DNA of 54,797 nucleotides, counting the filler, from Bipalium vagum (lineage: Eukaryota): the NCBI GenBank assembly GCA_037834085.1. It is 3 parts of 3 records of this genome, joined end to end, with 100 filler letters (N's around TTAATTAATTAA, not from the genome) between each part and the next. Parts side by side here need not be neighbours in the genome. Positions count along the whole stretch, not along the records: positions 18,478 to 36,540 come from JBBMKC010042151.1; positions 36,641 to 54,797 come from JBBMKC010038926.1; 1 more part is not named here. The stretch is one strand, 5' to 3'. Shown here in pieces: positions 19,351 through 50,335 of the stretch. Position 1 is the stretch's first letter. Each line of letters starts with the position of its first letter. The notes below the pieces were generated by a model. It was given only the letters and a program-made list of their open reading frames with translations, was not told the DNA's origin and ran no database searches. The position numbers were made by a program, and so were the translations under genes.

Positions 19351-20907
19351 ATGACCATGGATACCAAAGAAACTTTTGATTGCTGTGCTTGCATGAACGA
19401 GGTGGATATATCTGATCAAGTAACGACCGAATGTAATCATGTATTCTGTTTCCAATGCTTACAACAGTGGCTGCCCTCCAACCAGACTTGTCCTTTAGAC
19501 AGAAATGAAGTTTTGAACCTTTACACTTTTCAAAAAGAAAAGAATGAAAAAGCACATATTTCAATTGCACTTTTTCTCTATCCTGAGTTGTGTCAGAGAC
19601 TTAAAGATTTTATCACGGAAGGTTTCACAAAGAATAAAAATGCGTTAACATTGACTTTCAACTTCCATAAAGATTTCAAACAAAAATTACAGTCATTGAA
19701 AGACAATTTTAAAATCTTTGGTAAAAAACAGTTCCGAAATTGGCTTATCAATCAAAACGACTTTTCGGATAGAAGTATTGACGAATTTATTAAAACCCTT
19801 TTACCAAATGTCAAAGACTTCTTTGACCACTTTGAAAACTACTTGGGAAAGATTAAGTCTTTTCATCTTGAGATCAAAGAAGATGTTCTAAGCGCTATGA
19901 ATATGAAGGCTCTCAAAGAGTTTCATAAAGGAATTGTCACAAATCATATATTTAAAGAAATATTCCATCATATTTTTTCGGTTTACTGTATAATGTTTAA
20001 CCCTTTTGCGTCCGTTATAGAAAAAACTCTTAATGGATGTGACAAATCAGATAGTTTAAAAAGCGATTTAAAACCTTTATTTGATGTTGTCTGTAATAAA
20101 AAAAAAGTCACCAATTTAGCAGAGAAATATCTCAACTATTCCAAATCGATCATACTAAGATCATCAATGATTTTCGAGGTAGGTTTCTCAGAAATATTTG
20201 AGGATTCCCTCTACTATTGCTTGGTCTGCAATTGTTACCTTGATAAAACCATGACCATCTCCTACAAAGACTGTCAGCATAAAGTCTGCAGAGACTGCTT
20301 CCAAAGATTCTATCTAAAAAAGATCCAGTGTCCATTTCACGGGATTATTACTGAGAATTCCAATGTGATTGATACTGAGAGAGCTCATATCTGTTTAGTG
20401 AAAGAGCAAGAGAATATCCTTTATCAAATGATAGACTTGTTTAGTGAAACCTTTCTCATCATAAAAAATTGGTTGAAAAATATTTTTATAGGCTCGCTCT
20501 TAGAACAAGATGTGTACGATATTTCTATATTAAATGATCATAACCATGCCATTAAGTACAAAAATATTGAATTAGATTTTTCTATTATGGTGGAAAACTG
20601 GAAGATCTTTACATCAGAAGAATCAAGAAATGATGTATTTTTTACGTGCAGCAATCACATCTTCAATAGTTATAAAAGTATACTATTAAACACTCTAGTC
20701 CTTCAGAGGTGTCTAAGATCACCAGACAAGGAAAAACTTGATAAAACTTCAGTGATTGATAGTTTCAAGATTGATATAATTAATTTGCTTATAAGAACCG
20801 AAGAAAGCTTGAATGAAACATATTCAGAAACAAATAATCTCAAAATAGTGATGCAAAAATTTAATGCGTTAATTAAAAGTATTCATTCTGATTTATCTGA
20901 ACTATAA
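19351..20907 (+). CDS. intronless tandem double-RING protein (putative E3 ubiquitin ligase), 518 aa
   Basis: Uninterrupted 518-codon ORF in very AT-rich DNA. RING-A at aa 11-50 (CCAC..CNHVFCFQC..CPLD) and RING-B at aa 290-330 (CLVC..CQHKVCRDC..CPFH). AATAAA at the stop. Confidence 0.92.
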   Translation: MTMDTKETFDCCACMNEVDISDQVTTECNHVFCFQCLQQWLPSNQTCPLDRNEVLNLYTFQKEKNEKAHISIALFLYPELCQRLKDFITEGFTKNKNALTLTFNFHKDFKQKLQSLKDNFKIFGKKQFRNWLINQNDFSDRSIDEFIKTLLPNVKDFFDHFENYLGKIKSFHLEIKEDVLSAMNMKALKEFHKGIVTNHIFKEIFHHIFSVYCIMFNPFASVIEKTLNGCDKSDSLKSDLKPLFDVVCNKKKVTNLAEKYLNYSKSIILRSSMIFEVGFSEIFEDSLYYCLVCNCYLDKTMTISYKDCQHKVCRDCFQRFYLKKIQCPFHGIITENSNVIDTERAHICLVKEQENILYQMIDLFSETFLIIKNWLKNIFIGSLLEQDVYDISILNDHNHAIKYKNIELDFSIMVENWKIFTSEESRNDVFFTCSNHIFNSYKSILLNTLVLQRCLRSPDKEKLDKTSVIDSFKIDIINLLIRTEESLNETYSETNNLKIVMQKFNALIKSIHSDLSEL

Positions 20908-22279
20908 ATAAATTATTTTTAGTATTTTATTTTTTATTCTTTATTAATAATAATAATAAAAATTATTTAATATTTAAATTTGTTTTTTTTCATTTTTTGA
21001 GATTTGAGTTTTGCTTTACTATATAACATGTAGTCTGTCAAACGCCTAACTTTAACTTATACGCAAATGATAGCAAAAACCTTGTTATTAACTATTGATT
21101 TGATTTGGTCTATAAATACTAATCTATTGAAAAATGACATTACTAATCAATAGTAAATTAAATTAGAATCTGGTTCCAAAAGAATCAAATGCAATTCACA
21201 ATAATAATCAATACAATAAACATTAAGGCGACTCGAATGTATTTGTAATATTACAATTAAATTAAAGATCTATCACTTCGAAGGTAAGTGATGAGCTATT
21301 CTGATAAGAACTACATTTCCACTGACTAGTTTAATGGAAATACAAAAAGGAAAACGAAAGTGACAAGTAAAAAGCATAATGTTAATTACTTGAATTGATT
21401 GGTTTTCATCAATTCTAACTTTATTCCTTAACGACGGTCGCAACTATGCTTACCGTGAGATTACCGGGAAATAGTTGAGAGTCTATTTCTGATTTTAGTT
21501 TTTGAATCTGCAGTTCGGTGTGTTAAACTCCTATATGTTGTCATTCATACTATATTACATTAACCTAACTGAATGACGTTATGCTTATAATATTTCGGCA
21601 AAACCTCATCTTTTCATGTTTCGCTTGGCTTAAGGTTAGGACTCATTGATTCTCTTGAGTCCTAATTTTGCCATAGCTAGCTGAATTAAACTGGTTTATA
21701 TTCAATTTTCAATTAATTAATTAATTAACTTATTATTTATTATTATTCCTTAAAATTCTTATTTAACCTATTCCTTGTTACATTATGAGGTTAGTTTAAT
21801 TATTATTTTTATTTTCAATTAATTTTTGGATCACTGAATGAAACAAATGTTACTTTGTACCTGGAAAAAGTTGAAATGTTTAAATAAACTTTCAGTACAA
21901 TTTGAGCCACACAATATATATGAAAGTGATTTTATCAAATGTCAGTAGATTTAATCAAATATAAAAAACAATCAACAAGACGATTAAGTTATTATTATCA
22001 AATGAAAGTCGGTTTAAGTAATTAATACATTTTAATTACAAGTAATGACGCAATGTGTGTGATCCTGTTTCAATATAAATAGCTTTACATTTACCAAATA
22101 TAAATAACCTGGTGAGTATGTTGACTTTTGTTTTTACACATTCAAGATCATTTGGGATTCCTAAAACTTTTTAAGCTGTCTTTAAATAAGCTGTAAAAAT
22201 AATTAATCATTAGTAATTATAACTGATCTTATTTAATACAAAACAGCAAATCAGGAATTAATAACGTGTATACCTACCA

Positions 22280-23326
22280 TGAACTAGAATGCAGTCATGA
22301 ATACGTGTATGCCATGAATAATATTATTTGCTGATGGTAGCCTGGTAGTTTAAGTTCCATTGCTCCTCGAGAGGCTGTTGAAGATCGTGAATATTTGCAA
22401 TAGGATAGCATAGGTGGTCTATGGGATTTAAGTCTGGCGACATCATTGGTCATGGCAGAATCGCAACGCCCATAATATCAAAATATGTCATTGTTGCTCG
22501 CTTAGTGTGGCAGCATACATAGTCTTGGTGTAAGATTTTGTCAGACATATCTAGAACAAAAGAAACCGCTTCTACAGATAATACCCCCCCAATGAAACGT
22601 TTTGAGTCCAATATTCCTTTGTTGAAAATTGCTTGGGATTTCCTATTATAGATAATTTCTGTCAATACCACCATTTCGATTATGCTCTTGGATACAACTG
22701 CCCTTGAATTTTTCAGCTGGAAACCTGTGAAATACTATTCGTCCGTCATTAAACTCAACGGTGAAGCGTAATTCGTCCGGGAAAATTTATTTCCTTCAGA
22801 ACACAATCTTTATCTTGATACTAGTTGCACCATTTTAGGTTATGATTTAGATGAGTGGTTGTCAATGAAATGCGTACAAGTGGCTTATGAAAACCAGACC
22901 CTAGTTCCAAGTCTCTTCGTTTTTAACATTCACCTGAAGATTTGCACACCCAAGTTATATTGCAGTATACGATATGAACGAGATCTGTCAGGAATAATTT
23001 CCATACAGATAGATCGATCATCTGGTGCATTATTCAGACAAAGTCTTCCTAATCGAAGAGCAATAGCTGCTAATTCAGTTGATGCCATTTTTTCCAAAAA
23101 AGTGATACTGTTCCTTGAGAACATCTAACTATATTAGCAGCAAATCCTTGAAAACAACCTCCTTCTAACAAACCAATAATTCGTCCACCAAATAGCTTAT
23201 CAAGCTCATTGTCACCAATCTTTCTTGGCATAATTACTCCTTAGAATTATAGTAAACAAACGCAAATATAAAATGATTAAATTAAACTAACACAAATGAA
23301 TTAATTACTTTTGGCCACAAGTGTAT
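22280..23326 (-). mobile_element. decayed Tc1-like transposon
   Basis: ATG at 23231: MPRKIG...GRIIGLLEGG...VSLFWKKW, then FPDELRF..DGR and LHQD..H..T..GVAILP*PMMSPDLNPIDHL; many stops and frameshifts. Confidence 0.85.
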
Positions 23327-24479
23327 TTTAAATTATTCAATGACTTATAACTATAAAATAATTAAGAAATAAAGTTGATAAATGAATAAATATAAAATAA
23401 TTAAATAAATAGATGAATTATCAAATTATATTTTAAAAGTGGTATTCAAAAATATATATATATATAAATTATTTTAAGAAATTTTAAACCATATTAAGAT
23501 TAAGAGATTATTAATTATAAATCTTGAATTATATAATAAATTAAGTATGGGAGTAAGGTATAAAATTATAAAATAATTTGTAAAAAATTAATTATTGTAA
23601 TGTGAAAATTTTATTAAGTTCCATAAGAAAAATAGTGGAATACGTAAAAAAAATTATTAATAATGTAAATTATTATATCTATTATTATTATATCTATTAT
23701 ATCTTCTGATTAAGATAACTTTGACGAAACAACAAGTATCCATAACTTTAAGTAATTTCGGTCAAATTTCATATTATCCCATACATCATGTCGAGTTGAT
23801 AGATCAAGGTTGATTCTTCACACTCATCTTGGGTTTTTCTGCTTTAAAATCCTTCTGATGACCAGTTTTAAACATGAAATTCCATTGAAACTCTTATTTA
23901 ACGCAAGTATCTACTGAAGAGAACTTTATCCTGAATATGTTATAACAAATGAGTATCCCTTTCCTGTCAGAGGTCCACGACCTGGACCTAACTGGTTCAA
24001 TCTATCATTAGGATAAACGGATATCCTTTGAATTTTAAATTTTTTAGTGTACATAATAAAAAATGCTAAAATACATAGGTTTGTAACATTCACATGTTTT
24101 AGTTAAGTATAATTAACAGCTCAATATTACTTATTAAAATTCAATTTGGTAAATTGTAATTAATACCATGCTTTAAGTATATAAATATTGAAAGAAATAA
24201 TCTTGATATTAAGAGACTTAATTGTCTTGTAAACCAAGTTTAATTTAAGTATAATTTAATTTAGAAATTATAAATTAAACACATAAAAACTATAAAATTT
24301 AATATAAATATTCCTACTTTAGCTATTTAAACATAAAATTTAAATAAAAGTTCATATTTAATTTAATTTTGATAATTTTTGTTTAAATAATAAATATTTT
24401 GAAATTTTCAACTGAATGTTGCTGGCTATAGTTTTGTAGTAATATAAAATTATATTATTGCCACAATTAGCCATACAGT

Positions 24480-25632
24480 AACTTAGCCGTTATTCATTTT
24501 GTTTTCTAAAAGTTGAAAATAAGTTTCGGTTAAACAGTTTTGATTGAAAGAAATTAATAATTTTAGTTGTGAAAATATAAATATTTCAAATCAAATAAAG
24601 TTGTCATTTAGCCTCTATTTTGCAAAATGCTTTATTTCAGAATTTAAATGCCATTTTTAGCAATTGGTACTTTCCAGCCAATTTTTGTTTGGGGTTCTGA
24701 TTATTTAAACATGGTTTATACACCACACAAAAATATATAAACCATTGTATTTTATGCAAATATGCATATTATTACTACATTAATAATTTTTAAATATTTG
24801 TGAGTAACAAATTGATATTTGGTTGAGGCAAATTCCCTTTTTGGTCAAAAAAATGTCTGCTTCAAAACAGCATTTAAAAACTTGTAAGAAAAAATTGTTA
24901 TTGATTTGATTGAAAGAATAAAAATTTTATCAGAAACTGTCATGGTGTGATGAACACCATAAATGTGGTGAGCTATCCTAAACTAAAAACTATATGGCAA
25001 ATTAATTAAATGACATCGATTTTTCTTGATAACTGTCGACTTCAGTTCAGGTCTTGATGACAATCAACTAGGCAATTTTAGTCACCTGTCATATCTTACA
25101 GATTGCGAATCGAAGAAACCTATACTTTCGAATCAACAATTTACTTACAAGATAGATTTATTACTATTACCAAAGTTTTCCTTTGAGTTTCTGAGAAAAA
25201 TTTGATTGATTATCAGAATTCATAAAACTGATGTTATTATTAAAGGCAACAAAAAGAGCAAGATATTAAGAGGTAAAAATTCATTTTATGTGATCTATCC
25301 CAAACGGTTTCTCATAAACTGCATTATCTGCCATATATCAGTTTGATTTTTATTTTGAAGTTACTCGTGTTGCAAAAATAATTACAATATATAATATATG
25401 TTTCTGACAACAAAAATCGTGTCTTTCTAATTGAGCATGTGATAATGGTAGACCTTTGGTTATTGATGTATACAAATGAATAATTTTTATGTGAAAAAAT
25501 CGTCCAAATGCCGATTGCACTGTAAATGAAGATAGACTGAATCGGTACTTTTTTTAAGTAATATTTTTCTGTAATTTCATTACTGGTAAACAAACATGTT
25601 AGGTTTGCGAAGGACACATCCCTGTTAACCAT
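24480..25632 (-). pseudogene. decayed ORF of unknown family, possibly related to the 44219 and 52950 copies
   Basis: 102-aa ORF starting in a ttacaATG context. KYYLKKVPIQSIF resembles KYYCFKKAIQKYIF, and AGTTTCGGTTAAACA (24522) is shared with 52031. Confidence 0.35.
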
Positions 25633-26044
25633 TGTAAAAATTATATGTTAAAGACCACAAAAGGGTCTAGAAATTTATAATTATTAAGTCTGCAAAAGGG
25701 TCAAGTAAAATAATATTAATTAATTAAAAATAGTGCAAATTTAAATAAAACAAAAAAGGCAATTTCTTATTTTCTAAAAAGGATCTAATCTTGACAATGG
25801 CGAATCTAAGTTGCCAAGATTAGATCAGCGTCCGTAAGGAGGGACAGATTTAGTAATTTATTATCTAAAAAGGGAATTGACATTCCCCATTAATCAAGCT
25901 GGTCTACGACTAAATTGGATTCCGCAGTGGATTGCAACAAAAGAGATCAAGAAAACTTCGTTTATTATTTTGTCGGAAGAGCCAAAATTTGTCTCTGTTA
26001 TCAGATGATTTTCGAGGATTCCAATTTGTAATTAATATTTATGC

Positions 26045-26160
26045 CCTCTATGCGACAGGAGCTTACGACGGGTACTGTGCTGTTGGGGGTTTCTGAGCGA
26101 ACCGGATTGGGTTCAGCAAACCAACCTTTGGACATGTCGTCGGCTGATCGGTGAGAGGAT
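26045..26160 (+). repeat. GC-rich dispersed repeat, inverted relative to 37640-37730
   Basis: GTTTCTGAGCGAA..CGG..GGG.TCA.CA...ATCGGTGAGA is shared with the reverse complement of 37641-37720. Confidence 0.65.
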
Positions 26161-26397
26161 TTTTATTCTTTGTTTTTAAATTTTCATTTTTAAATTAATT
26201 TTGATTAAGACATTATTTACCCCAGCCAAATTCATATTGTTATATTCATCATCTGAAACTAAATTATTTTAAGAAATAATTTATTTAAATGTTTCAGTCA
26301 TCATTCTATTTAGAGAGAAACCGTTTTAAATGATCATTACTTAAATGAATTGAAATTATATTTTAAATAATTTTTTAGACTGAGTGATTGATTACTA

Positions 26398-26568
26398 CAG
26401 TCAGCGCTCAGTTATTTGAACTTTCAGTTATTTGAATAATTCAAACAAAGCTGGAAGATCATGGATTTGTTTTAAAATAAATTTTATTTGTAATTGACTT
26501 ATTTCAATAATTGAGTTATTTGAACTTTTTTGAAATCCCCACGAGTTCAAATAACTGAGCGCCGACTG
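26398..26568. mobile_element. Tigger/pogo-like MITE, 171 bp
   Basis: TIRs CAGTC(A/G)GCGCTCAGTTATTTGAACT, TA TSD, internal GTTATTTGAA repeats. Confidence 0.9.
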
Positions 26569-26917
26569 TATTTTATTACTAAAAATGAATTTTTTTAGAA
26601 TTCTCATTTAAAATTTAAGAACACAAACCGTAGAGATCTGGAGATCACTAAGAGTCTTTAATAATAATAATGATGATGATAACTTTATCTCGTTGTCTTG
26701 ATAATCACAAATTAGTTTTGGACGTAATGGCGAATTGTTGTAAATAGCCTCCCAAAAGTAGAGATTGAAGGTTGCCGGTCAACCATTTTGTGCGAGAACA
26801 TGATAAAGTCTAATTGAAATTATTTTGATTTAGTGAAGTTCTCGTGGTTATTTAGATTTAATGAACACGTTATCAAATAAGTGATTAGTTAGGGAAGTTT
26901 GAGCTTAACTTTACATA

Positions 26918-27950
26918 CAGGGTCGGAAACAAGTTAGTGACACATTACAAAAAGTTACTAAAATTTATATTTTAAAGATTTAGTATCATTATTAGTGACA
27001 AATAAATGTGTGTTTTTAGAGTACCTGAATGCAATTTCATTTAAGATAAATTTTTTTTATAAAAATATATGACGACTTGGCAATCAATATAATTTGAGTA
27101 ATATACCAAATATATCGGAAATTTAACTTTGGTGATACTACAAAATTTAGCCAGAATATTAGGGTTTAATTAATCATATTCCAAGGCAAATGATTGTATT
27201 CCATGAAATACTTTATAAATAACATTTAATATTTGCAATGATGTCCTTTATCCTTCACAAATGCTTTTAGTTTCCGAGGGATTGACTCATACAAATTACT
27301 GATGACCTTTTTTGGGATGTCATTCCATACCTTGTGGCTTACATTCCATAAATCTTCGGATGATATTATATTGAATCTAAAAACAGTTGTCTTCAGAATG
27401 GACCTTATATTTTGATGATATTGATGTCAAGCAGCTAGTCACTAAGAAAACCATTTTTTTCTGTTCCAGATATCACATTGCTGAGTGCGAAGTTTGACAG
27501 GGTTCACAATCTTGCATGAAGACGGAATCATTTACGTACATATCCAATAGTCCTTCTTCCAATATTAGTTGATAAGCAGTTGAATCAAATCGTATTGGAT
27601 ATCTAATGAGTAGTATTCTGCTACCGTCAGCTTTTATGGTTCTCAATATTAAAATGGATTTGCTGCTGTTTCGGACATTTTTAATGATATATTTGGGTTC
27701 CAACAATAGTTCACGTTGTCTTCTTACATATTGGGTATAAGGTGAACTAATTTCAATGCGACATTCATCAGAAAAATGATATTTTTCCATTGTTCTCTAT
27801 CCCAATTTTTGTAGGTCTTGCACCAGAAAACACATCTTTGCATATTAGTGTTACTAATGGGCGTTTTGCACTCAGCAATTCTTCTGGAAATCCGGATCTG
27901 TTTAAATACGACTGTATAGTTCGTAACTAAGACGAATTCAAATTTTCAAA
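26918..27950 (-). mobile_element. decayed Tc1-like transposon
   Basis: FSDECRI...VRR...FMQDCEPCQTS motifs in ORF 27473-27790 and a TA-CAGGG terminus at 26916. Confidence 0.8.
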
Positions 27951-27989
27951 ATTATATTTTTTAATAAAAGAGGGACTTTATTTTACAAA

Positions 27990-28631
27990 TGAGGGTGATC
28001 GACCTTGATGGATTTCAATATAGTCTCTTATTTTAGGGTTAGTTTTAGTTTGGGGTTAAAAAGTCCTCTCGCTCTTAGGCTCAGCGTACTTATTTATTTT
28101 ATTTGAGATCGACTTTGTTTTGTCTACAACAACTAATAATTTAAAACTAATAATAAAAGACAAAAATAATTTTAAACCGAAGCATATATATTACTGGACT
28201 AAAAGTGGATTTATAAGCTTGGCTGTAGAATGGTTTTTTTTAATGAATTAATCGCTCGTAGCCGTTCAACTGATCGTAATCTTCGTCGTACTCTTTGTAG
28301 TCGCAGGGTTTACTGATCGAAGTCTTTGTCGTAGTCTTTATAGTCGTGGGGTTTCACTGATAGTAGTATTTGTCGTATGTTTACGAGAAGCTGTAGATGA
28401 ACTGGCTCCTTGAAATAATTATCGTAGTAAATAATTGTGTACTGGCTTTGCTTGAACGTTGTTTTTATACGTTGATTGCGTTTTTGATTAATTGATGCTG
28501 TCGGTTTGGGATAACTTTGATTGATGAATACTTCCGGTTTGTTTTTAGAAATTTATTTTGTATTTTTTTTATTATTTTATTTATATTTTTTTATTATAAT
28601 ACTATTATTTTCCATCAAGGGCGACCTTACA
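27990..28631. mobile_element. solo-LTR-like / fold-back element with internal ~43-bp tandem repeats
   Basis: TG...CA ends; inverted match TCG(A/C)CCTTGATGGA near both termini; about 2.5 copies of ACTGATCG..CTT.GTCGTA.TCTTT.TAGTCG..GGGTTT at 28269-28382. Confidence 0.55.
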
Positions 28632-31586: not shown

Positions 31587-31589
<3 letters not shown>

Positions 31590-35039: not shown

Positions 35040-36540
35040 TAGGGCCCCCAAAAGTCAATAAAGTGAAAAAAATTGACCGTCAAAATAAAGTCAGAATAAT
35101 AACTTAAAGTTAAAATTTTCCATAAAGTTAAAAAGTCAATTAAAAGTCAATATAGAATCAAAATTATTGTTTTAATAATATCACAAAATATTTTAACTTT
35201 AAAAAATGCCTAAAAATGCTAAATCAGATTTTATGAAAGTACAGGAAATTGTTAGAAAATTCAGCTCAGAATTCACGAAAACTGATGAAAATAAAATATA
35301 TTGTAAATTATGTGAAACGATTCGAAGTTATTTTTCATTGAAAGTCATCAGAATTCGGCAAAGCACAAAAATGCAATGAAATCAACATCAAAAGCTACAA
35401 TTCAACAATTTTTGCAATTCCCAAAGAACAAATTTAAAAAAGAACTCGTGCGGGCTTCTGTTTATGCAGATATTCCACTGTGAAAATTAAGGTATGAAAG
35501 CATTTGAAACCTATTCACTTCGATTGGAAAATCAATTCCAAGTGAGCAATGGTGTTGAACTATTATTCCTGAATTATATGATGAAGAAATGATAAAAATG
35601 AAGAATTTAGTTGAAGACAAGGAAGTTTTCATGATTATTGATGAATCCGATTTATCAAGTAAAATAATTGTTGATGTTCTAGTTGGGTGTTTGGACATGC
35701 CTGAAAAATTTTATTTGGTTGATTGCATCCCTCTTTCAATAACACCTAATACTAAAATTATGATACATTTCATTGAAGATAATATTAATCTTTTAGGAAT
35801 TAAAAGAGGAAATTTTGTTATTAATAAGTGATGCAGCTCGGTACATGACTGGTGCAAGTAAAACATTACCTGTACTTTATCCAAAACTTTTCCATGTAAC
35901 TTGTATAGCACACTTAACCTATAATTGTGCTATGCGAATTAGATCGTTTTACGAAAATGTCGATTATTTGATCGCAAAATTTAGAAGCGCAACGTTGAAA
36001 AAAAACGAAATTGAATGATTTTGCAAGTATTGGATATCCACCAGAAACAATTATTACAAGATGGGGCTTTGTACCACTCTAGTACTACTCTTGTACTACT
36101 CTAGTAACTTTCCGGATGTTAAAAAAATTATAGAAAACTGGACAGGCGAAGGGATATTAGTACAACAGACAAAATTAGCAATTCAATGTGACAACTTGAA
36201 TAATTCATTGGTTGAAATTCAAGAATGCTACTCTTAATTATCATTTTGTATTAGTAAACTTGAAAGTTCAAAGTATTCCATATATGAAGCATTTCAAGCT
36301 TTTCAAAATTTGAATTTCAGTATCGATCCATGTCAAATTAGGGAAATATGGCAAAAAGACTTGATAAAAATGAAATGCAAAATATCATAAATTGTTCCAG
36401 GCCTGAAATATCACCGCGAGAATATGTTTTATTGAGAAAATGCCAAAGCACAACATCAGAGGCAGAAAGAAGCTTTTCTTGTTTGAAAAATATGCTTAGA
36501 AGCAATCGGAATTTCAAAATGGAAAATATTAAGATGTACT
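35040..36540 (+). mobile_element. hAT transposon remnant (CGGBP1/DUF659-like), truncated by the linker
   Basis: MPK...IYCKLCE zinc-finger start at 35207; IIDESD; LLISDAARYM..LFHVTCIAH; TTSEAERSFS dimerisation motif; AAAGTCA subterminal repeats. Confidence 0.88.
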
Positions 36541-36640
36541 NNNNNNNNNNNNNNNNNNNNNNNNNNNNNNNNNNNNNNNNNNNNTTAATTAATTAANNNN
36601 NNNNNNNNNNNNNNNNNNNNNNNNNNNNNNNNNNNNNNNN
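36541..36640. other. artificial contig linker N44-TTAATTAATTAA-N44
   Basis: Same 100-nt structure as 18378-18477. Confidence 0.95.
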
Positions 36641-37200
36641 ACCAAATCACAATTACATTTTCCTTCTAATAGTCAAAAATAGAATTATAATAAAATACTG
36701 CCCACACTATACTTCTTGAAGTGCCGCTGTAGTGCCGCTGCAATGCCAAATTATAACAGTACTGTCCATCTCTAATACAAAAAGCAGTCTTCTCTTGCAA
36801 ATCTATGTTAATTCAACTTGATAAAAAGCATTACCCAGGTTAGACATTGGAAATGCTTGTCTTTCGGTCACTGCATTAAGTCTTCTAAAGTCCAGACAAA
36901 TCTGAATGTCTTTCTTTTCTTTTTTCCAAACGCATATCAATGAGGTGTTCCACGGAAAAATACATTTTCTGATGATATTATTATCATACATATTCTTTAT
37001 CGTCTCGTTTATCTTTTCTTCTAAATTCATTGGTTGCTTGAATGGTTTAAAATTCATTGGCTCACCTTTCGTTTTTATTGTATGTTTTGTCAGATGGGTA
37101 GATCCAAAGTCCTATTTATCGGCCATAAACGCTTCTTCGTTTACTTCAATTACCTTTAGTAATTTGCCATCTGCATTATCATTTAATAGAATTAGAGGTC
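36641..37200 (-). mobile_element. Ty3/Gypsy pol (reverse transcriptase) fragment
   Basis: HTIKTKGEP...IIRKCIFPWNTSLICVWKK..IQICLDFRRLNAVTERQAFPM...NAFYQVEL; internally deleted. Confidence 0.9.
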
Positions 37201-39809: not shown

Positions 39810-40139
39810 TGTGGGTTCATATTTTAATTAATATCTAACTCCACTTTTAATTAACTTTCCTTAACATTCCTTTTTTAGAAATATAAAATAAATATAGTAG
39901 GCTTTACGAAGCCTTTTCGTGCATATCAATATAAAATTTAAAATTTAAATTTAAATTCAAATATCAATTATAAAATCAAATGATGATCATTAGTTTTGGA
40001 GAGCTATCGTCACTCTCCATCGGCTCCTGAGGTTCGTCAGCGATCTCTGGAATCCGTTGCTTTGGATTTTTTTATCAGACTGGTTTTTTTACCAGTTTTA
40101 CTGTGGATTTCACTGGGGATTTCACTGTGGATCCCAATA
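39810..40139 (+). mobile_element. dispersed solo-LTR-like repeat, copy B
   Basis: Colinear with 18568-18961 and also preceded by (TAA)n. Confidence 0.7.
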
Positions 40140-42334
40140 TTGATAAAGTTTTGTATATTAAATTGTTATCTTATTCGATTAAAAATCATAGTTAAAACGC
40201 GCCTGAAAAACCTTCTAACCGTTAAGCTCTTAACCCAACCCACTTTATTTAAGAGACTTAACAATATAAAAAAAAGGTTAAAAGGGTGTATCCATGGCTA
40301 ACCCAACAATATAAATATATTTTAGGATTATGGCAAAAAATTTAAATATGAACCAATAATTATAAATAATTACATTTTCATTATCGATCAAAAGTAGTTT
40401 TAAGTAACGTGGATCATGAAAAGTGGTCATAAAGGTAAACTCTGAATTCTTCACAACCGCCAAATGTCCAATATCAGATACCTATGTAAGTGATTCCCAA
40501 AGTGAGCGCTCCAAGGAATTTAGTGTGAGTTATTTTGGGGACACCAAGTAATATTTATTCTGAAAAGGGGACGGTACGATTTTGTCAATTTCGATTTGTT
40601 AAGATAAGAGAAAAAATATACTTTTTATTATTATGTACTTTATTAATTATTATTATTATTATGCAAATTATTATCATCATCATTGGAATTTATTATTGTT
40701 GTAAGGCAGATCCTTTTGCGGTCTTCACAATCCAAGGGGGACGTGCCTTTGGTCAACGCAACAGACACTTCAGACTTTGATTAAATTCGGTCCTCCGATT
40801 CTATTATAAAACGAAAATGTTATATTAATACAACATCAACACCAAGTTTATTGTTATCAATTCAGTCCATTACTCTCGTCACCGCTGCTTCTCCTTTACC
40901 CTTTTCTTCTTGATGCCGACCCATTCCGATTCCACGTTCTTCAACCCTCCTCCTTTTCTTTCCATGCTTTATCATGAGTCAGAATTACTTATTGTCCTGT
41001 TCGCGCAGATCTTAGTTTAACCTCAACCCATTCCTTCCTATTCTCCTTGATGAGTAGCTCTAGACTCCCTACTTTGACGGGTTTGTCTAATTGGCAGGTT
41101 TCTGCAGCAGGTAAATTGTCCTACTAGCCAGAACATTGTCAGAAAATATGACAGTTAAGTCAAAATAGATCCGATAAATTTACCAATTTCAAGACGCGTG
41201 CCTACCCCTTACGGATATGTTGAAGTAAGGGTCAACTGAAGACTGTTGACATGACTTCATTATGTTAACTAACTTGACCAAACCCTCTCAGACATTTGAG
41301 AGGTAACAGGTCTCAATCGACCAATCCAAAGTAAAATATACATTTTGTGGAATTTAGAACGAAAAATAAATGTCACTCTTCCTTTATTTATTATTTTATT
41401 TAATTAATGTTTTGATCTTACGAAGGGAACGATAATTAAATCAATTTTGCAACAACTTTTTTCCCTAGACTTCACTGACACTCTCCAAATGTCAGAATTG
41501 TTTACGAGGGAATATCAAATGCTATTTTCTGTATTCGCCAGCGGATCGGTCTGCTACGGTTCTGCAAATGTGTTGGAAGTGCTTTGCTAAGAACAAAGGT
41601 TACGTATTTCTTCAAACGATGTTTATTAATTATATTAAATTACAAATGGAATGTTATACAGTAACGGCCACAAGAAATTCAATTAAGCAATAAAGTCCCA
41701 ATTAACGAAATGCAGAGGGAAAAGATCACGAATGGCCATTGTTCGTGGTTCAGGCTTGATCCGAGAGGACATTTGAAACGGGATCCCAGTTTCAAAGTCA
41801 ATCAAGTTTGATATTTGCCCATGTCGAAAAAGTGAACGGCCATGACTGGCAACATGACCACGATTGGAATTGACCAATGAAAACGAGTTGTGCAATTAAT
41901 AACCTCCACGAGACACACAGTCGACACGGCGTCATCTGTTCACAGAGTCGAATGTATGTCAGATCATGCAGTATGCATATTATAGCGTTCGGTGTGATGT
42001 GATGCGGGTAATAGTAGCAGTGGAGGCGGTGGTGTGTTTGTTGATGGATGTTTACTACAAGAAACTAATTGATTGGACTCCATGCTGTGGTTGTAGTAGG
42101 TCGACGTGTGTTGGCATGACACACACAGGGTTTTCTCACCCCCGGTCTTTGTTAGTCATGGCCAGACACGCCTGTTGGTGTGCATTGTCTCTCATATTGT
42201 CTGGCTGTTCACCGTTGGCTGTCCACAATTGTTAATGAGTCAGTTTTCTTTATCCGGATTGTGATCAACGGATTTTGTCTTTGTTCGTCAAACGCGAAAA
42301 AACCGCTCTTGCAATTAAAGTTGACCGTTGTTTC

Positions 42335-42570
42335 ATGAAGAAAATGTCTTGTTTCTGTGCCTCGAACTCGTCTGCAGATTCCGTCTATTCGGGATATTTT
42401 CGCTGGAGAATGGGCTTGCCGCTGCCGCCGATTCCGCAAGAAGACTCCAACGTTCTTAGAACCGGTTCCAAAGACATTTTCGGTGAAATTATCGGAGTAA
42501 AGCATACCAATGATTTTACCATGGACGATACGGATGCCAACAACACTCCGCGTCGTTTTCGGCGCAGAAA
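42335..42570 (+). CDS. first coding exon of an orphan low-complexity adaptor-like protein (MKKMSCFC...LPLPPIP...RRFRRR)
   Basis: GC-rich ORF ending in an AA|GTAAGA donor, phase 2, which matches the acceptor at 45537. Confidence 0.65.
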
Positions 42571-44029
42571 GTAAGAGCTGTTAATTGTTTTGCACCAATA
42601 AACCTTTTTCCAATGTCAAAATTTCTTGTTGAGAACTTCACACTCTTCACCGTCTTGTTGTTTTATCATCGTTAGGGACGGTGAAGTATTTTTTTAATCT
42701 TGAAAATTTATTTTTATCTTTCCACCTGAAAAGGATCAGTTAATTTTTTTAAATATTTAAAAACCAAAAAATTTTACATTTTATAATTAGGGAAAATAAT
42801 TAATTTTGTTTTAATCAGTCAAACAAAGACTCAAAGGTCATTGGTTGATTTCGCTGAGCATAGTCAACAGTTGGGGAATTTTATCATTTTTATTGTAATT
42901 TTCCTATGGTTTTTCTAATATAATCAAAGTTGAAGGTTTCGGATAAATTACATTCGTCTTTCTGTTATTTGTTTCCTCTTGTTTTATTATTTTTCCTCTT
43001 TGTATTTTAAGGTTTCTTGAGAAAAGTTTGAATCAATGTTTGAGCAAATTTTAGAGACCTGTGTCTGGTTCTTGTTTGTTAATGTCTCGAGATTAGCAAC
43101 AACATTTGTGCTCTTTGTACTGAATTATTGTGTGAGATAAGATTTTATTCTATTGTTTATTATGAAAATAACAATAAAGGATTTGTGGGTCTTACTCATA
43201 AAGTCTGAGACTATTCGAAAGAATTTGGTGAAAATAATATTTCTGGTTCATTCAGGATTTCTTTTTTTATTTTCATTGAATGGGATTTCTTTATACATAA
43301 TATTAAAAATTTATTATGTTTTTAAAAATAGAGATAAGTTTTACTATAGATATCAAACTAAATTGAGCTGCTCATCAGTAATCGAAACAACCCTACTAAT
43401 TTATTATTTTTAATTAATTTTTTCTTTTGGTCTTGAAAATATTTTTGTCTTTTATTTAGGTATACCTTATACAGCTACTTAAGCCTTGCTGTAGTCAAGC
43501 CATTTAATTATTTCTTATGGCTTTCTTCCGGTGCAAAATTTATCTTACAATACAGTTCTTCGGTCATATTCTAAACCCATGACTAATATTAAATAATTCA
43601 AAATGTATAAATCAATTTTATTGATAAATTAACTTACTTAAACAAAAATAATTATATTGATTACTGAAATAATGTAATATAACTTTGAAAATCATCCGAA
43701 TTTATCTCGACGACTCTGTAAATTTATGAAATTCCTTAAAATTGACACATGATGAAAAATCTCATTAGAAGTTTAGAATGTTGATAATTAAAACAAGTGG
43801 ATCAGGAAAAACTAATTTTATAATAGTCATAAATGATGACTTTGATAATGATATTAATTTGATTATATTTAATAAAATTGCATTAATTTGATCAGAATCA
43901 AAATATAAATAATAAAAAATAAATAAACAGTCCTTATCTTTGGGATGATAATGTTCATTCTAGTTTCGTTAATAAAGACTGGGGATGTAAAATATGAACA
44001 GAAAAAATGCTGACTGATTAAATGTTTAT

Positions 44030-44362
44030 TAAATCAAATGAGTTTAACAAAAAATAAAGATAAAAGTAAACCAATAGTAAAATTTGTGGCAATATTGATC
44101 TTAGGTGCAATATCAACAAAATCAGTCACAGTGTTAAAGATATATTTTTGAATCGCTTTTTTAAAACAATAATACTTAAACGAATTTTCCATTCTTGATA
44201 AATCAATATATTGGACCATTGTAACTAAATATCGAAAATCATTTCAATAAAATTTATTTTAAAATAAATATTAAAATTAAATTTACACTTAATTAAAAAT
44301 TAAAATTAGGCGCACTATAAAAATTCAAAAATTAGAAATCAGTTTAAATACTCACAATTGAT
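44030..44362 (-). pseudogene. decayed ORF start (MVQYIDLSRMENSFKYY...) with an upstream intron-like segment; paralog of 52270-53075
   Basis: Colinear nucleotide similarity with 52300-53075; shared GTGAGTATTTAAACTGATTTCTAATTTT donor-like motif upstream. Confidence 0.55.
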
Positions 44363-44998
44363 TTTTAAGAAATTTAGAAAATAATGAATGAATTTTAAAA
44401 ATAAGATTATTTCAATTGTGTAAAATGAAAATATCAATAAAAGAATTTGTTGGTGGAACCTGATGTCTGAGGTTCGTTGAAGAAAAGACAGTTATTTTTT
44501 TTATTCGTTACAAGGAAAATTAAACGGTAACTGTTGCCGATCGTGGGGAAATTGTAGAATAGAATTAGTTCGCTCAAAGTAGAACTTTCATCTTCTGAAA
44601 TTTTGGCTTATTTTTATTAATGAGTAAATATGAGAGTAACGATTTAGTTGGCACCAGAGTCTATCAGTCATGAAAATTAGTTCGTTCTAACCGTTCTCCA
44701 TTAACAAATGGAATTTGTCCGTCCTAATCTTCGCACTAATGTAAATTGTTGCGTGTTGGCTTTTCTCATTTCCCCTAACTTAAAATATCTTAACAAGGCA
44801 AATCTGTTGATCATTTATTATTTTTTTGGGTAACTGACTTTATAAATGAGTTATCAAAAGGTTGCTTATCTTCTGAAATATTGGTTTAAGTTTGTGTACG
44901 TGATAAAGACCATGGCAAGCTTACTAGAGAGTCAAGTGCATTAAAATTACAACAAAAAAGGTAGCGAAATTTCATTTTTATTAACTATTGATCTAACA

Positions 44999-45162
44999 NN
45001 NNNNNNNNNNNNNNNNNNNNNNNNNNNNNNNNNNNNNNNNNNNNNNNNNNNNNNNNNNNNNNNNNNNNNNNNNNNNNNNNNNNNNNNNNNNNNNNNNNNN
45101 NNNNNNNNNNNNNNNNNNNNNNNNNNNNNNNNNNNNNNNNNNNNNNNNNNNNNNNNNNNNNN
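44999..45162. other. assembly gap
   Basis: N run. Confidence 0.99.
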
Positions 45163-45536
45163 TTAATATAATTTGTGTTATTTTCACATTATTTCATAAT
45201 ATTAATGTTAACATAACATAACATAACAATAACATAATATTAATGTTGTACACGTAAATTAAGTCAGAAGGTAACAGGATTTATGTAGAATTAATTTTTT
45301 TATTTTTACAGTTATGATATTTGCTGTGTTTTAATTAATAAATACCTTTGATTACTGCGTTGTTATTTTAAATGAGATTAAACAAGAGTTTATATTAATC
45401 AATAATTTACAAATTAATAAAACAATAAAATGTTCTTCATTTTATGATTTCTAAACAATATTAATGTTAAAATATTTTTATATTTATTTATTTATTGAAA
45501 AAAATATTCTAAATATACTTTGTTATACCCAAACAG

Positions 45537-46284
45537 TGTGAATAGCAGAATATCTAATCGGATTTTGTCAGAGCAACGGTTTTTGAATGAGCTACGAGCC
45601 AGGAGACAAACGAATACAATAGGACGTGGATTTAACGACCAGCTTGATTTCACCAATCAAAATTCTCAAAATGATCAAAAGCCATCAGAATCCTCCACAA
45701 GCAAGGTCTTAAGAGCAGCTCCGCCACCGTTACCTCCACACAGAACAAGACCCCAAGGGGATCAACGAACAAACAGTAATGGAACATTGTACAACTATGG
45801 TGAATCAGACTCAGAAGCTTATTTGTATTCCGATCCTGAATGTAGTTTATTGCGTATAAATGAAGATGATATGGGTGCTGCCATGTCATTGGGTCGCGGA
45901 AGGGAGAAAAGCATCCCTATGGACAATGATAATCTATATGATCTTCACTGCTNNNNNNNNNNNNNNNNNNNNNNNNNNNNNNNNNNNNNNNNNNNNNNNN
46001 NNNNNNNNNNNNNNNNNNNNNNNNNNNNNNNNNNNNNNNNNNNNNNNNNNNNNNNNNNNNNNNNNNNNNNNNNNNNNNNNNNNNNNNNNNNNNNNNNNNN
46101 NNNNNNNNNNNNNNNNNNNNNNNNNNNNNNNNNNNNNNNNNNNNNNNNNNNNNNNNNNNNNNNNNNNNNNNNNNNNNNNNNNNNNNNNNNNNNNNNNNNN
46201 NAGAAAATAAATTCTCTGAAGAACGGAGACATCGATCAAGACATGGACATTGACAACCACCAAAAATGGGACACTGTGAACTGA
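45537..46284 (+). CDS. last coding exon of the same orphan protein (PPPLPP, several Tyr motifs); contains a 249-nt gap
   Basis: aaacag|T acceptor in phase 2, GC-rich open frame, and the frame is preserved across the gap to TGA at 46284. Confidence 0.72.
45953..46201. other. assembly gap inside a coding exon
   Basis: N run of 249 nt. Confidence 0.99.
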
Positions 46285-46724
46285 GGTGACAAAGACATCA
46301 TTTGAATATGAAGCCATATTTAATTCATTATTTCGTCTTATCTATCATAGCGTTTTACTTTTTCATATGATAACGATTAAATAATGTTTATTTCTCAAGC
46401 ATATTTTTACGTGTTTGCCCAATGGATCGATATGAATGAACAGTTTCGTTTGTACCATTTTTTTGTAAGGGATATTTCCATTTTCCAACGATACGACCAT
46501 TTGGGCTCACCTTTCGTGTTTTTGGCAATGAATAAAAAGAGCATAGACCATTGTAAATGCTTCGACGGTTCGATGGTGGTGTAGATAATAAATAGAGTTT
46601 TGCAAATTAATTTCAACCATTTCAGAAATTATTTATTTTATTTTCTTTATGTGGATTATTTATATTTTTCAATGTAATGATTTTATTATTATTATTATTA
46701 TTATTTAATTTAGTACTGATTTAT

Positions 46725-46935
46725 TCGAATAATATATCAGCGACTGGTTTCATTCGTTTTTTAATATTTAATTACTTATTGGTATTTTTATAATCCCCGT
46801 ATTTCTAGGAAGCTTCCAATTAATAATAAAAAATAATATAAATATAATAATTTATCAGCAGTTGGCTTTATTATTTGACATTCAACTAATTACTGGTAGT
46901 TTTATAATCCTCATATTTCCGATTAATTTCCTTTT
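46725..46935. repeat. degenerate ~118-bp tandem duplication
   Basis: TATCAGC...TGGTA.TTTTATAATCC.C.TATTTC occurs twice. Confidence 0.6.
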
Positions 46936-47817
46936 TTAATTAGAAATTATTATTAGAAAGAAACTTAGAACCAATAAATAAATAAATAAAAGCATACTAC
47001 TTATCATTATCAGTGAACAAATATTATCATTATCCTGGTTCCATATTATAGTAATATATATATATATATTTTTTTTGTTTTAATTTTTATCACAAGGTTG
47101 AATGAAACTTTGATTTTCTTTGTGAAAACTTTTATGGAGTTTCCAGTCTCCAAACACGAAAGAACTCAATGGTGACAATTGCGGTCTTTGAAGTCCACCG
47201 ATTTATGGTGTTTTTATTGTCTTTTTATGGGTAATTTTATTTTGTTTTCGAAAATATGTCATGCCAAAGAAACCGAACCAATAAAGCAGTCAATACTGCC
47301 AGGAGGTGATTAAATTCCCACTGGAGTATTTCTTGTATATGAGTTACCCTGCTTGATGTTTGTTTAGCATCAAATGTACGTTTGGTGGTCAAAAAGGTTT
47401 GAAGTCAAAAATTATTCTTCGTCGCAGTCTGTTTCACTTTATCTTGCTATTTTCTTTATTTCGTGTTTTTTTTCAACATAAAACTGCAAATAAAATTGAT
47501 TTTTTCATCTGCAGATAGAAAATATTATTTATTTATATAATGAATTATATTATTTATATATTAGTATTATAATATGAGCTATTGTTCAATGACGAAGTCG
47601 ATCTGCATTAAAAATAAACATATAATCGATTTGTAAAATTATTTTCAGAGAAAACTGTAAAAAGGAGCAGTTTTTTAGGAGAATTAAAATTATAATAAGA
47701 ATAAAAACCAATAATATGATAACTGAAATAATAATACTGTTAATATCAATCGGTTTATAATCGGAACTAAAAGTTATTTTTTTGAATAAATTTATTAAGT
47801 GATAAAACATATTATAT

Positions 47818-47965
47818 TTTAGAAAAATGTTCTCAGACCTGGAAATTCTTTTTTTAATTTTAAAAATATGTTTACTTTTAAAATTTCATTTATACATAGA
47901 CCTTTTATTTTAAAATAATTACAATAATTAAGAGAGTCCCCAGGTCTGATTAACCTCCTCATAAA
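47818..47965 (+). repeat. dispersed repeat, copy of 37240-37385
   Basis: TCTCAGACCT..AAATTCTTTTTTT..TTTTAAAATTTCATTTATAC..CCCAGGT.TGATT..CCTCCTCATA is shared. Confidence 0.75.
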
Positions 47966-48104
47966 AGCAATTAAATATTCAGGTCAGTGTTTGCTTTTTA
48001 AGAACCGCTGCCTCAATCGAAGGTTGTACTTAAATAGTGTGAGGTTGTTATACAATCAAATACAAACACAGGTATGAATTAATTATATAAGTAAACATTT
48101 ATTA

Positions 48105-48403
48105 TTTTAGGAAATATTCATCAATAGTTGTTCTAAATTTTCGTGCAGCTTCGGCAGATTTCGTGCCAAGTTTGTATTCATAGAGTAAACTACTTCAAAT
48201 TAGCGCTTTTTTGGAGGCCATTTTGACTAAGTAATTGAACTTTTTAAACAATATTTTCTAAATTTTTTTAAAATCAATTGAAAGAAAAAATATTACCTAA
48301 GCGAAATAAAACAAAATAAATAATTCACATCAATAAGTATCAATAAAATCTATCATAATAGGCGGTATTTAAAAAAACCACACGAACTTTATTGGTTACC
48401 TAA
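48105..48403 (-). mobile_element. mariner 5' fragment
   Basis: TIR-like TTAGGTAACCAATAAAGTTCG and MASKKALI*SSLLYEYKLGTKSAEAARK. Confidence 0.8.
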
Positions 48404-48733
48404 TAGATTAGAATTTTTTCATTATAATAATTATTTAAGTTAAAGAAAATATTAAAAAATAAAAAAGATATTTTACATAAAAATCTTAAAATTTATTTAT
48501 CGTTGAAATGAGATCACCAATGAAAATCGACTTTTTAACATAAAAATTTAAAACTTCTTCAACTTTGGTTTTGGTCTCAATTAGCAATTTCCGCACTACT
48601 CACGTAAATCTGCGAAATAAATAATTATGTCTAATTTTAATAAAATAAATGTAATATATTTTAGATTCCGTAATTTGAAATCTAAACGTCGTTTATTTAA
48701 CTCATTTTTCACAATATTTATATTTAAGTTACA

Positions 48734-50335
48734 ATGTCAAATTTTACATATGATGAAAAGTCATGCCTGGTTTGCTATGATTCTGAGAACGGTGACAACT
48801 TTGTTACTTTTATGCAATGTAATCATACATTCTGCAATACTTGTTTTATTGAAATATTACTCCAAGAAAACGTGGTGTGTCCCATAGATCGAAATTCAAT
48901 AGGGACAGTAAAGACCAACGGGATCTTAGGACTAACACTGCCACAAATGAGACATAATATTTTGGAAAAACAGCCTCAAGTATTAATGAAAATTATTGAA
49001 AGTCAATGGCAGGAAGATATATTGTATATGTATAAGACTCACAATAAATTCAAGGACACATTGGAGAGAACAGTAGATATTTTAGAAAACAGTCTAATGC
49101 AATACCAAGAACAAAGTGAAATGACTTATTCGGCAAAATTAATTTTAGATCTCTATGAACAACAACAGGAATCGTATGAAAACGTAGTTCGTCTTAATTT
49201 TTCGTCAGCAAAACAAAGAATATTTAATGATTATATTAAAAAATTACCATATGAAGAAAGGACTCCAATTCACTTCAACGTGTTAAGTGCACCACAATTA
49301 TCATATACACAATATCTGTCATATCCTACGTTCTTATATGCATTCGATCAATGTGCTATGCCAAAGATGTATATCAGTCAGAATATAAAGATTCTTAAAG
49401 AAGATTTATTTGAAATTAAAACATCATCCAATTTCATTTTGAGCATTGTTATATCGTTTATAAGTGACAATAAAGAGTTGTATTTTCAGCTTCAACCTGA
49501 AATCAAGGAAACCGATATCGATAAATGTTTAATCTGCTGTCATCAAATTGGAAGTGACTTATATGGTCAATTTGAAAGCTGTTCACACAAGTTATGTTCC
49601 AACTGCATCAAGCATTTTATGGTAAGTCATGGAAGTTGTCCATTCCATAATAGTGAAATCCATGACTTAAAAATGAAAATGAGCCCGGGAGATGTAAACA
49701 AAGAATTTGTTTGTGTAAAAGAATATTTATTGGAAAATATAGTGAATATTGGTGAAGAATTGTTTGAGGAAATCGACAAGTTGAATTTAACAATAATCGA
49801 GGATCTTGTTTCAAATAAATCTCACATATCCGTGTTTTTGGAGGAGTTTGCATGGATAGATTTTGGGAAAAAAAGAAATTTAACTAAAGATGAAATTAAA
49901 TTACTGTTAGAAAATGTTGAAAGCTCAATTGAACATATTCTGAACAAAAATATCTTGAATTTGTGTCAAACCCGGTCTAACAACTTAAAATGTTTTGTCT
50001 TTTGTTTGAAGAGGTTTTTGTCAAATCATTCTTCAAACATTTTGACTCAAAATTTAAATGAGACGGTGATTTCATCTCTTTCGGAATTGTTATTTGCATC
50101 TGCACGAGATTATTATCATTTTTATGATATCATTTCGTATTTTGCAAGGGATATATATACTACAGAGACGATGTCAACCAGTCTGTTGAAACATTACCAA
50201 AATATTTTCATTCTGACTTTCGAAGATACATTCAATTCTATTATGTATTACGGGGTAGATGGAAATACGGAATTTACTGACTTATATGTTAATAATAAAA
50301 GAGAGTGTCAATTAAAATGGCGAAATAAATTATAG
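48734..50335 (+). CDS. intronless tandem double-RING protein (putative E3 ubiquitin ligase), 533 aa; paralog of 19351-20907
   Basis: RING-A from aa 11 (CLVC..CNHTFCNTC..CPID) and RING-B from aa 265 (CLIC..CSHKLCSNC..CPFH); uninterrupted ORF. Confidence 0.92.
   Translation: MSNFTYDEKSCLVCYDSENGDNFVTFMQCNHTFCNTCFIEILLQENVVCPIDRNSIGTVKTNGILGLTLPQMRHNILEKQPQVLMKIIESQWQEDILYMYKTHNKFKDTLERTVDILENSLMQYQEQSEMTYSAKLILDLYEQQQESYENVVRLNFSSAKQRIFNDYIKKLPYEERTPIHFNVLSAPQLSYTQYLSYPTFLYAFDQCAMPKMYISQNIKILKEDLFEIKTSSNFILSIVISFISDNKELYFQLQPEIKETDIDKCLICCHQIGSDLYGQFESCSHKLCSNCIKHFMVSHGSCPFHNSEIHDLKMKMSPGDVNKEFVCVKEYLLENIVNIGEELFEEIDKLNLTIIEDLVSNKSHISVFLEEFAWIDFGKKRNLTKDEIKLLLENVESSIEHILNKNILNLCQTRSNNLKCFVFCLKRFLSNHSSNILTQNLNETVISSLSELLFASARDYYHFYDIISYFARDIYTTETMSTSLLKHYQNIFILTFEDTFNSIMYYGVDGNTEFTDLYVNNKRECQLKWRNKL

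Follow-up and report, generated by a model that had tools for sequence, protein, structure and literature searches.

Division of labor between two RING domains has been described for the ubiquitin ligase (E3) heterodimers RING1B-BMI1, MDM2-MDM4 and BRCA1-BARD1, in which an active RING carries the linchpin, i.e., the residue that holds the conjugate of ubiquitin-conjugating enzyme (E2) and ubiquitin closed and for which arginine is most effective, and the other RING acts as a scaffold (PMC12326332, in excerpt). A natural single-chain pair of a canonical and a non-canonical RING is found in PRT1 from Arabidopsis (RING1-RING2 plus a ZZ domain), where RING1 is indispensable and must contact the non-canonical RING2 for activity to be complete (PMC12370974, in excerpt). 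Here, we analyzed a stretch of 54,797 nucleotides from Bipalium vagum (assembly GCA_037834085.1; three parts of three records joined end to end, which need not be neighbors in the genome), hereafter the window, which contains two single-exon open reading frames (ORFs), each encoding two RINGs in one chain. We put the chances at about even that both genes encode intact, deeply diverged E3s of one family, with an active first RING (RING-A), a helper second RING (RING-B) and helical bundles that choose the substrate.

By analogy, PRT1 serves as the working model for the asymmetry of the two RINGs, since it may share with this family a single chain that joins a canonical, essential RING to a non-canonical one. 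The two differ in other respects: PRT1 has a ZZ domain and the family has none (no cysteine cluster past RING-B and no Pfam match), each RING of the family is trailed by a bundle of about 200 amino acids, and the intramolecular RING contact demonstrated for PRT1 is a doubtful possibility in the family. Beyond the RING fold, there is no sign of common descent. The heterodimers would resemble the family in pairing one linchpin RING with one scaffold RING, but they are encoded by two genes per pair and the family by one chain. In addition, about 10 residues precede RING-A, and the model shows no helix ahead of it, so that the dimer bundle typical of such pairs may fail to form.

Architecture of the Two Double-RING Genes

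Both ORFs lie on the plus strand, 28 kb apart in window coordinates, and all positions given below count along the whole window. ORF1 (19351..20907) encodes 518 amino acids (protein P0001) and ORF2 (48734..50335) encodes 533 (P0002), each in a single coding exon. The two intact ORFs of about 520 amino acids on which the original prediction was built are exact frames, and they exceed the longest stop-free runs obtained by chance, which reached 182 codons when the window was shuffled 100 times and 151-161 codons when the bases of each ORF were shuffled 1000 times. A public-run contig, which may come from the source sample, spans positions 19100-24000 without any difference. Exact-sequence look-up in the protein collection found neither ORF.

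In ORF1, RING-A (Cys11-Arg51; 19381..19503) is of C3HC3D type and keeps both a helix tryptophan (Trp40) and a linchpin arginine (Arg51), with Ala13 at a position where isoleucine is usual among members. It is followed by a spacer of 238 amino acids (19504..20217) with four scattered cysteines and no IBR, which by homology would form helical bundle 1, by RING-B (Cys290-Gly331; 20218..20343), with histidine as ligand 8 and glycine at the linchpin position, and by a tail of 187 amino acids (20344..20904), which is probably helical bundle 2 and whose homology to the family is at shuffle level. ORF2 has the same order of elements, namely a C3HC3D RING-A with linchpin Arg53 (Cys11-Arg53; 48764..48892), a modeled beta-hairpin and helical bundle 1 (residues 54-264; 48893..49525), RING-B with histidine as ligand 8 and asparagine at the linchpin position (Cys265-Asn306; 49526..49651), and a second modeled beta-hairpin and bundle (residues 307-533; 49652..50332). 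With spacers of 238 and 211 and tails of 187 and 227 amino acids in ORF1 and ORF2, respectively, the anticipated layout of RING-A plus about 220-240 and RING-B plus about 190-230 amino acids was borne out.

A six-frame scan of the window for RING patterns gave exactly four, two per ORF; there is no third double-RING copy in it. Pfam zf-RING_2 matches two stretches in each protein, with 53.8 bits for ORF1 and 36.8 bits for ORF2 at a cut-off of 27.3. RING-A ends in CPLDR in ORF1 and CPIDR in ORF2, and RING-B in CPFHG and CPFHN, and a DNA pattern specific to RING-B is present in both ORFs and in 0 of 100 shuffles. Otherwise the proteins are as diverged as had been proposed: BLASTP aligns the RINGs alone (31-35% over about 50 amino acids), and the RING-free parts of ORF1 and ORF2 score at shuffle level (z 0.1).

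A Highly Diverged Family of Relatives

A phmmer search with P0002 against 1.84 billion representative proteins returned 54 matches at E<=0.001, 34 of them at E<=1e-10, the full-length ones being 22-32% identical. Both RINGs occur at family spacing in 32 of the 54 matches, 30 of these 32 being full-length (482-664 amino acids), and the distance from the first cysteine of RING-A to the first cysteine of RING-B ranges from 223 to 298 amino acids among family members. The remaining matches are mostly fragments, together with four generic or unclear RINGs. None of the 20 clusters checked is named; 14 derive from Logan and 6 from the ENA, with no other source, and 18 are singletons, an abundance that suggests rarely sequenced species. 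Each checked relative lies on a single contig of 1.3-3.7 kb, which may be transcript or genome, with an uninterrupted frame; the intronless state is shown for the two window genes alone.

ORF2 is, from its sequence, a clear member. On RING-free profiles built without the window proteins its spacer scores 72 bits and its tail 41 bits, where shuffles reach no more than 8 and 5, respectively, and fragments held out of the profile still score (P0037, 55 and 70 bits; P0044, 46; P0056, 41). ORF1 probably belongs to the same family as an outlying member, joined weakly through one bridging relative, P0043, with which it shares 28% identity over 393 amino acids (E 5e-25). The RING-free spacer of P0001 matches P0043 with z 5.1, reached by 0 of 3000 shuffles; the local score of its tail against P0043 was reached by 261 of 3000 and is not significant. 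On a profile from which P0043 was left out, its own spacer scores 7.6 bits, the maximum of 200 shuffles being 0.3. Each ORF1 RING, moreover, favors its matching family profile (RING-A, 31.0 vs. 21.6; RING-B, 34.8 vs. 21.7).

For further analysis we used an alignment (A1) of 37 rows, from which 19 of the 54 matches were omitted (the generic or unclear RINGs P0049, P0050, P0053 and P0054, and 15 short fragments). A quick tree, with five partial rows left out, is star-like, with support of at least 95 on 8 of 29 branches, and its terminal branches have a median length of 1.44 changes per column. The two window genes are far apart in it, and either their duplication is old or evolution has been very fast. 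P0008, P0014, P0022 and P0034 form a well-supported subgroup with long acidic C-terminal extensions and often one additional cysteine past RING-B ligand 8.

Other searches extended the family no further. Word-based protein searches with P0001 and with the family alignment gave no match, although both also miss relatives that phmmer found and are weak in this respect; Rfam gave no match either. None of the 27 pattern matches from metagenome scans was a relative. Two RING-B pattern matches in metagenomes were also set aside: L001 is a chance match inside a bacterial locus, and L002 is a single-RING protein outside the family. The L002 frame (568-1686, minus strand) is compact and GC-rich (guanine plus cytosine). 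Its N-terminus is acidic, its RING is of the CPxDR kind and its tail is rich in Arg and Pro; a small C2H2-like frame follows. We take the L002 protein to be reminiscent of ICP0-type or PHRF1-type RINGs. Over RING-B of ORF1 (20229-20409), the depth of contigs at 80% likeness sums to as much as 133, against about 26 over the 5' part of the ORF; one explanation is short matches from paralogous RING-B copies, depth being no copy number.

Asymmetry between the Two RINGs

Residues were counted in the 34 RING-A and 37 RING-B rows of the alignment, all 37 rows of which match zf-RING_2 at E<=0.05. Ligand 5 is cysteine throughout (34/34 and 37/37), the ligands of RING-A are near-invariant, and six cysteines and a histidine are invariant in RING-B. 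Conserved non-canonical ligands, as originally predicted, are a property of RING-A, where ligand 8 is aspartate in 33 of 34 rows; the histidine of RING-B does not extend to the family, ligand 8 there being Asp in 19, His in 13, Glu in 2, Phe in 2 and Cys in 1 of 37, so the histidine shared by the two ORFs is not a family constant. Likewise, the start of RING-A at Cys11 holds for both window ORFs but for only 7 of 34 members, the range being 4-30.

RING-A thus fits the C3HC3D class, to which PHRF1, SCAF11, LNX and RNF41 also belong, and we presume that the tryptophan-bearing RING-A of ORF1, P0043 and P0055 resembles those of PHRF1 and SCAF11. The earlier statement that aspartate as the eighth ligand was already known is correct: the class is a recognized one that comprises 5 of 139 fly RINGs, and TRAF6 and Roquin share this ligand with RING-A (PMC3166285, in excerpt). 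It is also shared by TRIM23, whose RING ends in CPFDR and so has the CPxDR ending too.

The clearest difference between the two RINGs lies in the residue after ligand 8, which aligns with the linchpin arginine of RNF4 and RING1B. In RING-A this position is Arg in 21, Lys in 4, Asn in 3 and another residue in 6 of 34 rows, whereas in RING-B it is Gly in 15, Cys in 6, Ser in 6, Asn in 3, Asp in 2, Lys in 2 and another residue in 3 of 37, and Arg in none. A comparable split is seen in RING1B and BMI1, which have Arg and Asp, respectively, at this position. The face of RING-A that would contact E2 retains Ile/Val in 30 and Pro in 32 of 34 rows.

Predicted Fold

AlphaFold2 modeling of P0002 on the 37-row alignment gave a mean predicted local distance difference test score (pLDDT) of 81.7 and a predicted template modeling score (pTM) of 0.84, with the five models at pLDDT 78.6-81.7; a single-sequence run of P0001 reached a pLDDT of 36.6. 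In the P0002 model each half is predicted to consist of a RING, a beta-hairpin, a short helix and a bundle of long helices (residues 69-253 and 328-532), with a similar order of elements in the two halves. The pTM suggests confident placement of the two halves, and says nothing more on contact between the RINGs. Averaged over pairs of members, identity is 0.37 in RING-A, 0.44 in RING-B, 0.21 just ahead of RING-B and 0.13-0.14 in the bundles. The halves align with each other over 102 columns, RING included, with a probability of 98%.

Comparison of the model with known structures, one of the checks proposed with the original prediction, retrieved RING fragments and generic bundles. The RING fragments superpose on the RINGs of MEX3C, IDOL and TRAF proteins at 1.9-2.7 Å, and Foldseek found no match at E<=0.001 among PDB entries and viral models. 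VIA-align returned generic helical bundles, the best being a designed protein at Z 10.0 with a root-mean-square deviation (rmsd) of 7.6 Å over 192 aligned residues; this is below the Z of about 13 that the tool sets for helical bundles, and the domains were compared inside the whole model rather than folded alone. Among its best 50 rows there was no single-chain RING-dimer entry, a result that is not firm on RING geometry. Residues 56-262 had no usable match in the Atlas.

Relation to Known RING Families

The original prediction that the layout fits no RBR, TRIM, TRAF or LONRF protein and belongs to a real, highly diverged family with many members agrees with our results. For the following comparisons, the Pfam scan of the alignment rows lists 25 of 30 families, none of the others matching more than a single row. 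RBR ligases (Parkin, Ariadne, HOIP) also have two RING-named domains in one chain, yet no IBR lies between the RINGs here: there is no Pfam match at E<=1, the spacer contains four cysteines in ORF1 and one in ORF2, as had been noted from the missing IBR pattern, and it is modeled as all-helical. Nor does RING-B resemble the RING2/Rcat domain with its catalytic cysteine; it has ordinary cross-brace spacing without that cysteine pattern, matches RING-HC profiles and aligns column for column with RING-A. Among the families listed there is no B-box (nor a B-box pattern) as in TRIM proteins, no TRAF zinc finger or MATH domain, the tail being modeled as all-helical, and no PHD finger or SRI domain as in PHRF1 and SCAF11. 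LONRF proteins combine a Lon substrate-binding domain with two RINGs; no LON match is listed, and the tail is helical in the model. RNF32-type proteins are double RING-H2 proteins with histidine at ligand 5, a position always occupied by cysteine in the family. More generally, the partner domains of C3HC3D proteins (TRAF zinc fingers, MATH, ROQ, B-box, ARF, PHD, PDZ) were not found, and the family has a second RING and helical bundles in addition. Matches to viral RING ligases (ICP0, IE2/PE38/CG30 and giant-virus RINGs) are RING-only or not superposable.

A published description of the family was not found in the literature searched, subscription journals and bioRxiv supplements lying outside its reach, and our best reading is an undescribed, lineage-restricted E3 family. 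Nor did PMC13034038 (in excerpt) contain anything of relevance. Planarian annotation tables may list members under other names. For Schmidtea mediterranea, the RING list contains 99 TRAF-like genes, 17 entries without a human match, and 18 transcripts whose best human match is PHRF1, 17 of these under 62 bits (PMC8807557, Table S1, in excerpt). Double-RING family members could sit among such weak-match rows. The available part of this account of planarian RING expansions, a table without sequences or domain layouts, describes no double-RING family (PMC8807557).

Proposed Function and Alternative Explanations

As RING-A mostly has Arg or Lys at the linchpin position and RING-B never has Arg, the two are most simply read as a catalytic and a helper RING joined in a rigid chain. 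The protein would then be a likely monomeric ubiquitin ligase with a compact, predicted fold of two [RING-hairpin-helical bundle] units. Activation of the conjugate of E2 and ubiquitin would fall to RING-A, with RING-B as a helper that is not itself catalytic, and the substrate would be selected by the variable bundles. The parts of this proposal differ in strength. Judged from the residue pattern, the ligase activity originally proposed is likely; we lean slightly toward RING-A as the catalytic finger; and direct contact between the RINGs, argued from PRT1, is possible yet doubtful.

Several observations weigh against the proposal or the grouping beneath it. RING-B is the more conserved RING (0.32 vs. 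0.22 identity outside the ligands, in addition to the overall values of 0.44 vs. 0.37) and retains the hydrophobic residues of the usual E2 face (Ile 27/37, Phe/Tyr 30/37, Pro 36/37), which could make it the principal site of function. RING-A lacks the arginine in 13 of 34 rows, has the helix tryptophan in only 3, and has alanine in place of the usual isoleucine in ORF1. Ligases without a linchpin arginine can be active, as in XIAP (Tyr) and Doa10 (His) (PMC12326332, in excerpt). As for membership, the RING-free parts of P0001 score 3.8 and -4.3 bits on the family profile, which is noise, its RING-A scores 31.0 where an unrelated RING scores 33.0, and its join with P0043 in the tree is flagged as long branches meeting. 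P0047, P0051 and P0055 failed the held-out RING-free test, the relatives were collected with P0002, whose scores are thus favored by selection, and they carry no taxon assignment. Finally, the two halves compared without their RINGs give a probability of 1.35% (E 0.038), which is not significant.

These points lend themselves to other explanations. RING-B may be the working E2-binding site, for an E2 that can do without a linchpin or by keeping the E2-ubiquitin conjugate open, or both RINGs may serve different E2s, one priming and one building chains, with RING-A secondary. The conservation of RING-B and of its Ile, Phe/Tyr, Pro and Phe on the usual E2 face favors this, as do known ligases with a His or Tyr linchpin and linchpin-independent E2s (PMC12326332, in excerpt); it is nevertheless rather unlikely in view of the linchpin position (Arg 0/37 and Gly 15/37 in RING-B, Arg or Lys 25/34 in RING-A), and the conservation would equally suit a structural element buried inside the compact model. 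The drift of RING-B ligand 8, which extends to Phe and Glu, the 13 of 34 RING-A rows without Arg and the mostly missing helix tryptophan could also be read as marks of zinc-stabilized scaffolds or pseudoligases without E3 activity of their own, acting as adaptors, E2 sinks or decoys, and RING pseudoligases are on record (PMC11992055, in excerpt). We regard this as improbable, since Arg/Lys is still the majority at a surface position in proteins otherwise 14-22% identical, and the E2-face Ile/Val and Pro are kept.

Slightly less probable still is that ORF1 and ORF2 are unrelated double-RING genes made alike by the constraints on RINGs, for which the absence of direct RING-free similarity between them and the score of ORF1 on the RING-A profile, like that of an unrelated RING, would speak. 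P0043 argues otherwise, as it was found through ORF2 and is co-linear with ORF1 over 393 amino acids, as do the preference of each ORF1 RING for its own profile and the RING-B pattern common to both genes. Descent from a DNA virus, or copies that are endogenous viral genes, was among the original suggestions, and the lack of introns in both window ORFs would suit it. The top Atlas feature matches are short giant-virus RING proteins (0.89, which below 0.9 is a lead only), but the proteins of these clusters are far shorter than the ORFs. The best viral fold row, an unnamed 538-amino acid protein of near-equal length (A0A8T9VS70, E 0.003), has a template modeling score of 0.14 and an rmsd of 31 Å, and no viral row reached E<=0.001. 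A set of 2.9 million viral contigs, scanned three times with a reach limited to close or motif-exact relatives, gave no relative, PHROGs gave nothing at E<0.01, viral hallmark domains occur in 0 of 33 flanking reading frames scanned, and ORF composition resembles host exons (GC 0.31 vs. 0.31-0.39 in those of a Ror-like gene in the window). A viral origin is therefore very unlikely.

Origin and Genomic Context

The preferred origin is a host one, from a single CPxDR-type RING gene by internal duplication. As the halves align with the RING but not without it, internal duplication is likely yet unproven, and we consider it moderately probable that the double-RING protein arose in this way. Spread by recent retroposition, another early suggestion, is without support, as the sequence up to 700 bases from each ORF contains neither an A-run of at least 8 nor a 12-base direct repeat; old retroposition is possible.

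The GC content of the window is about 28%, and the third-position GC of the ORFs, like their overall GC, matches that of the Ror exons. An intron-rich Ror-like kinase gene together with mariner elements identifies the setting as animal host DNA. This Ror-like receptor kinase (78-17457, minus strand) is very diverged, with a Fz domain at 15650-15922 (just under the Pfam cut-off), a kringle at 8168-8515 and kinase exons with long inserts at 78-3803, the kringle and one kinase exon being above the cut-off; two possible Ig-like exons were seen by eye at about 17457-17349 and 17100-16989. In window coordinates, the most upstream Ror-like exon visible by eye is about 1.9 kb away from ORF1. The first exon was not found, and ORF1 may therefore be head-to-head with Ror or inside its first intron. 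The stop codon of an uncharacterized gene precedes ORF2 by 2.4 kb.

A near-complete Mos1-type mariner (10803-12098) has 33-base inverted ends that are 97% alike and one in-frame stop in its transposase, and other mariner/Tc1 remnants occur near 9463, 27226-27945, 34011, 50776-51690 and 52472. Another stretch, of higher GC (42338-46284, plus strand; GC 0.42-0.48), is probably a gene with two or more exons and has no Pfam match; with its proline-rich stretches and tyrosine motifs, it looks by eye like a signaling adaptor. At 54057-54500 (minus strand) there is a serine-rich frame of 147 amino acids without a meaningful Pfam match. Fragments resembling a hAT-type transposase, with a weak DUF659 match, lie at 35559-37111, and presumably include the start of a Ty3-type reverse transcriptase.

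Implications

Lineage-specific RING expansions and aspartate ligands are already known kinds of observation, which tempers the novelty of this family. Natural single-chain ligases with an active and a helper RING in tandem, however, have rarely been characterized, PRT1 being called the prototype (PMC12370974, in excerpt). If our reading is true, the family would provide an independent case from animals, in which nature offers dozens of variants, and the confident model together with the clear residue asymmetry makes the division of labor between the RINGs directly testable. It can be speculated, as an unlikely extension, that the family represents a lineage-wide set of single-chain E3 sensors, in which a fixed heterodimer of an active RING-A and a scaffold RING-B is joined to two hypervariable helical bundles, newly arranged, that recognize pathogen or transposon proteins; with as little confidence, such sensors might be for flatworms what the expanded TRIM proteins are for vertebrates, concealed among planarian RING genes with weak annotation. 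Should the host prove to be a planarian, the family would give an identity to part of the unexplained RING repertoire in a model of regeneration and innate immunity.

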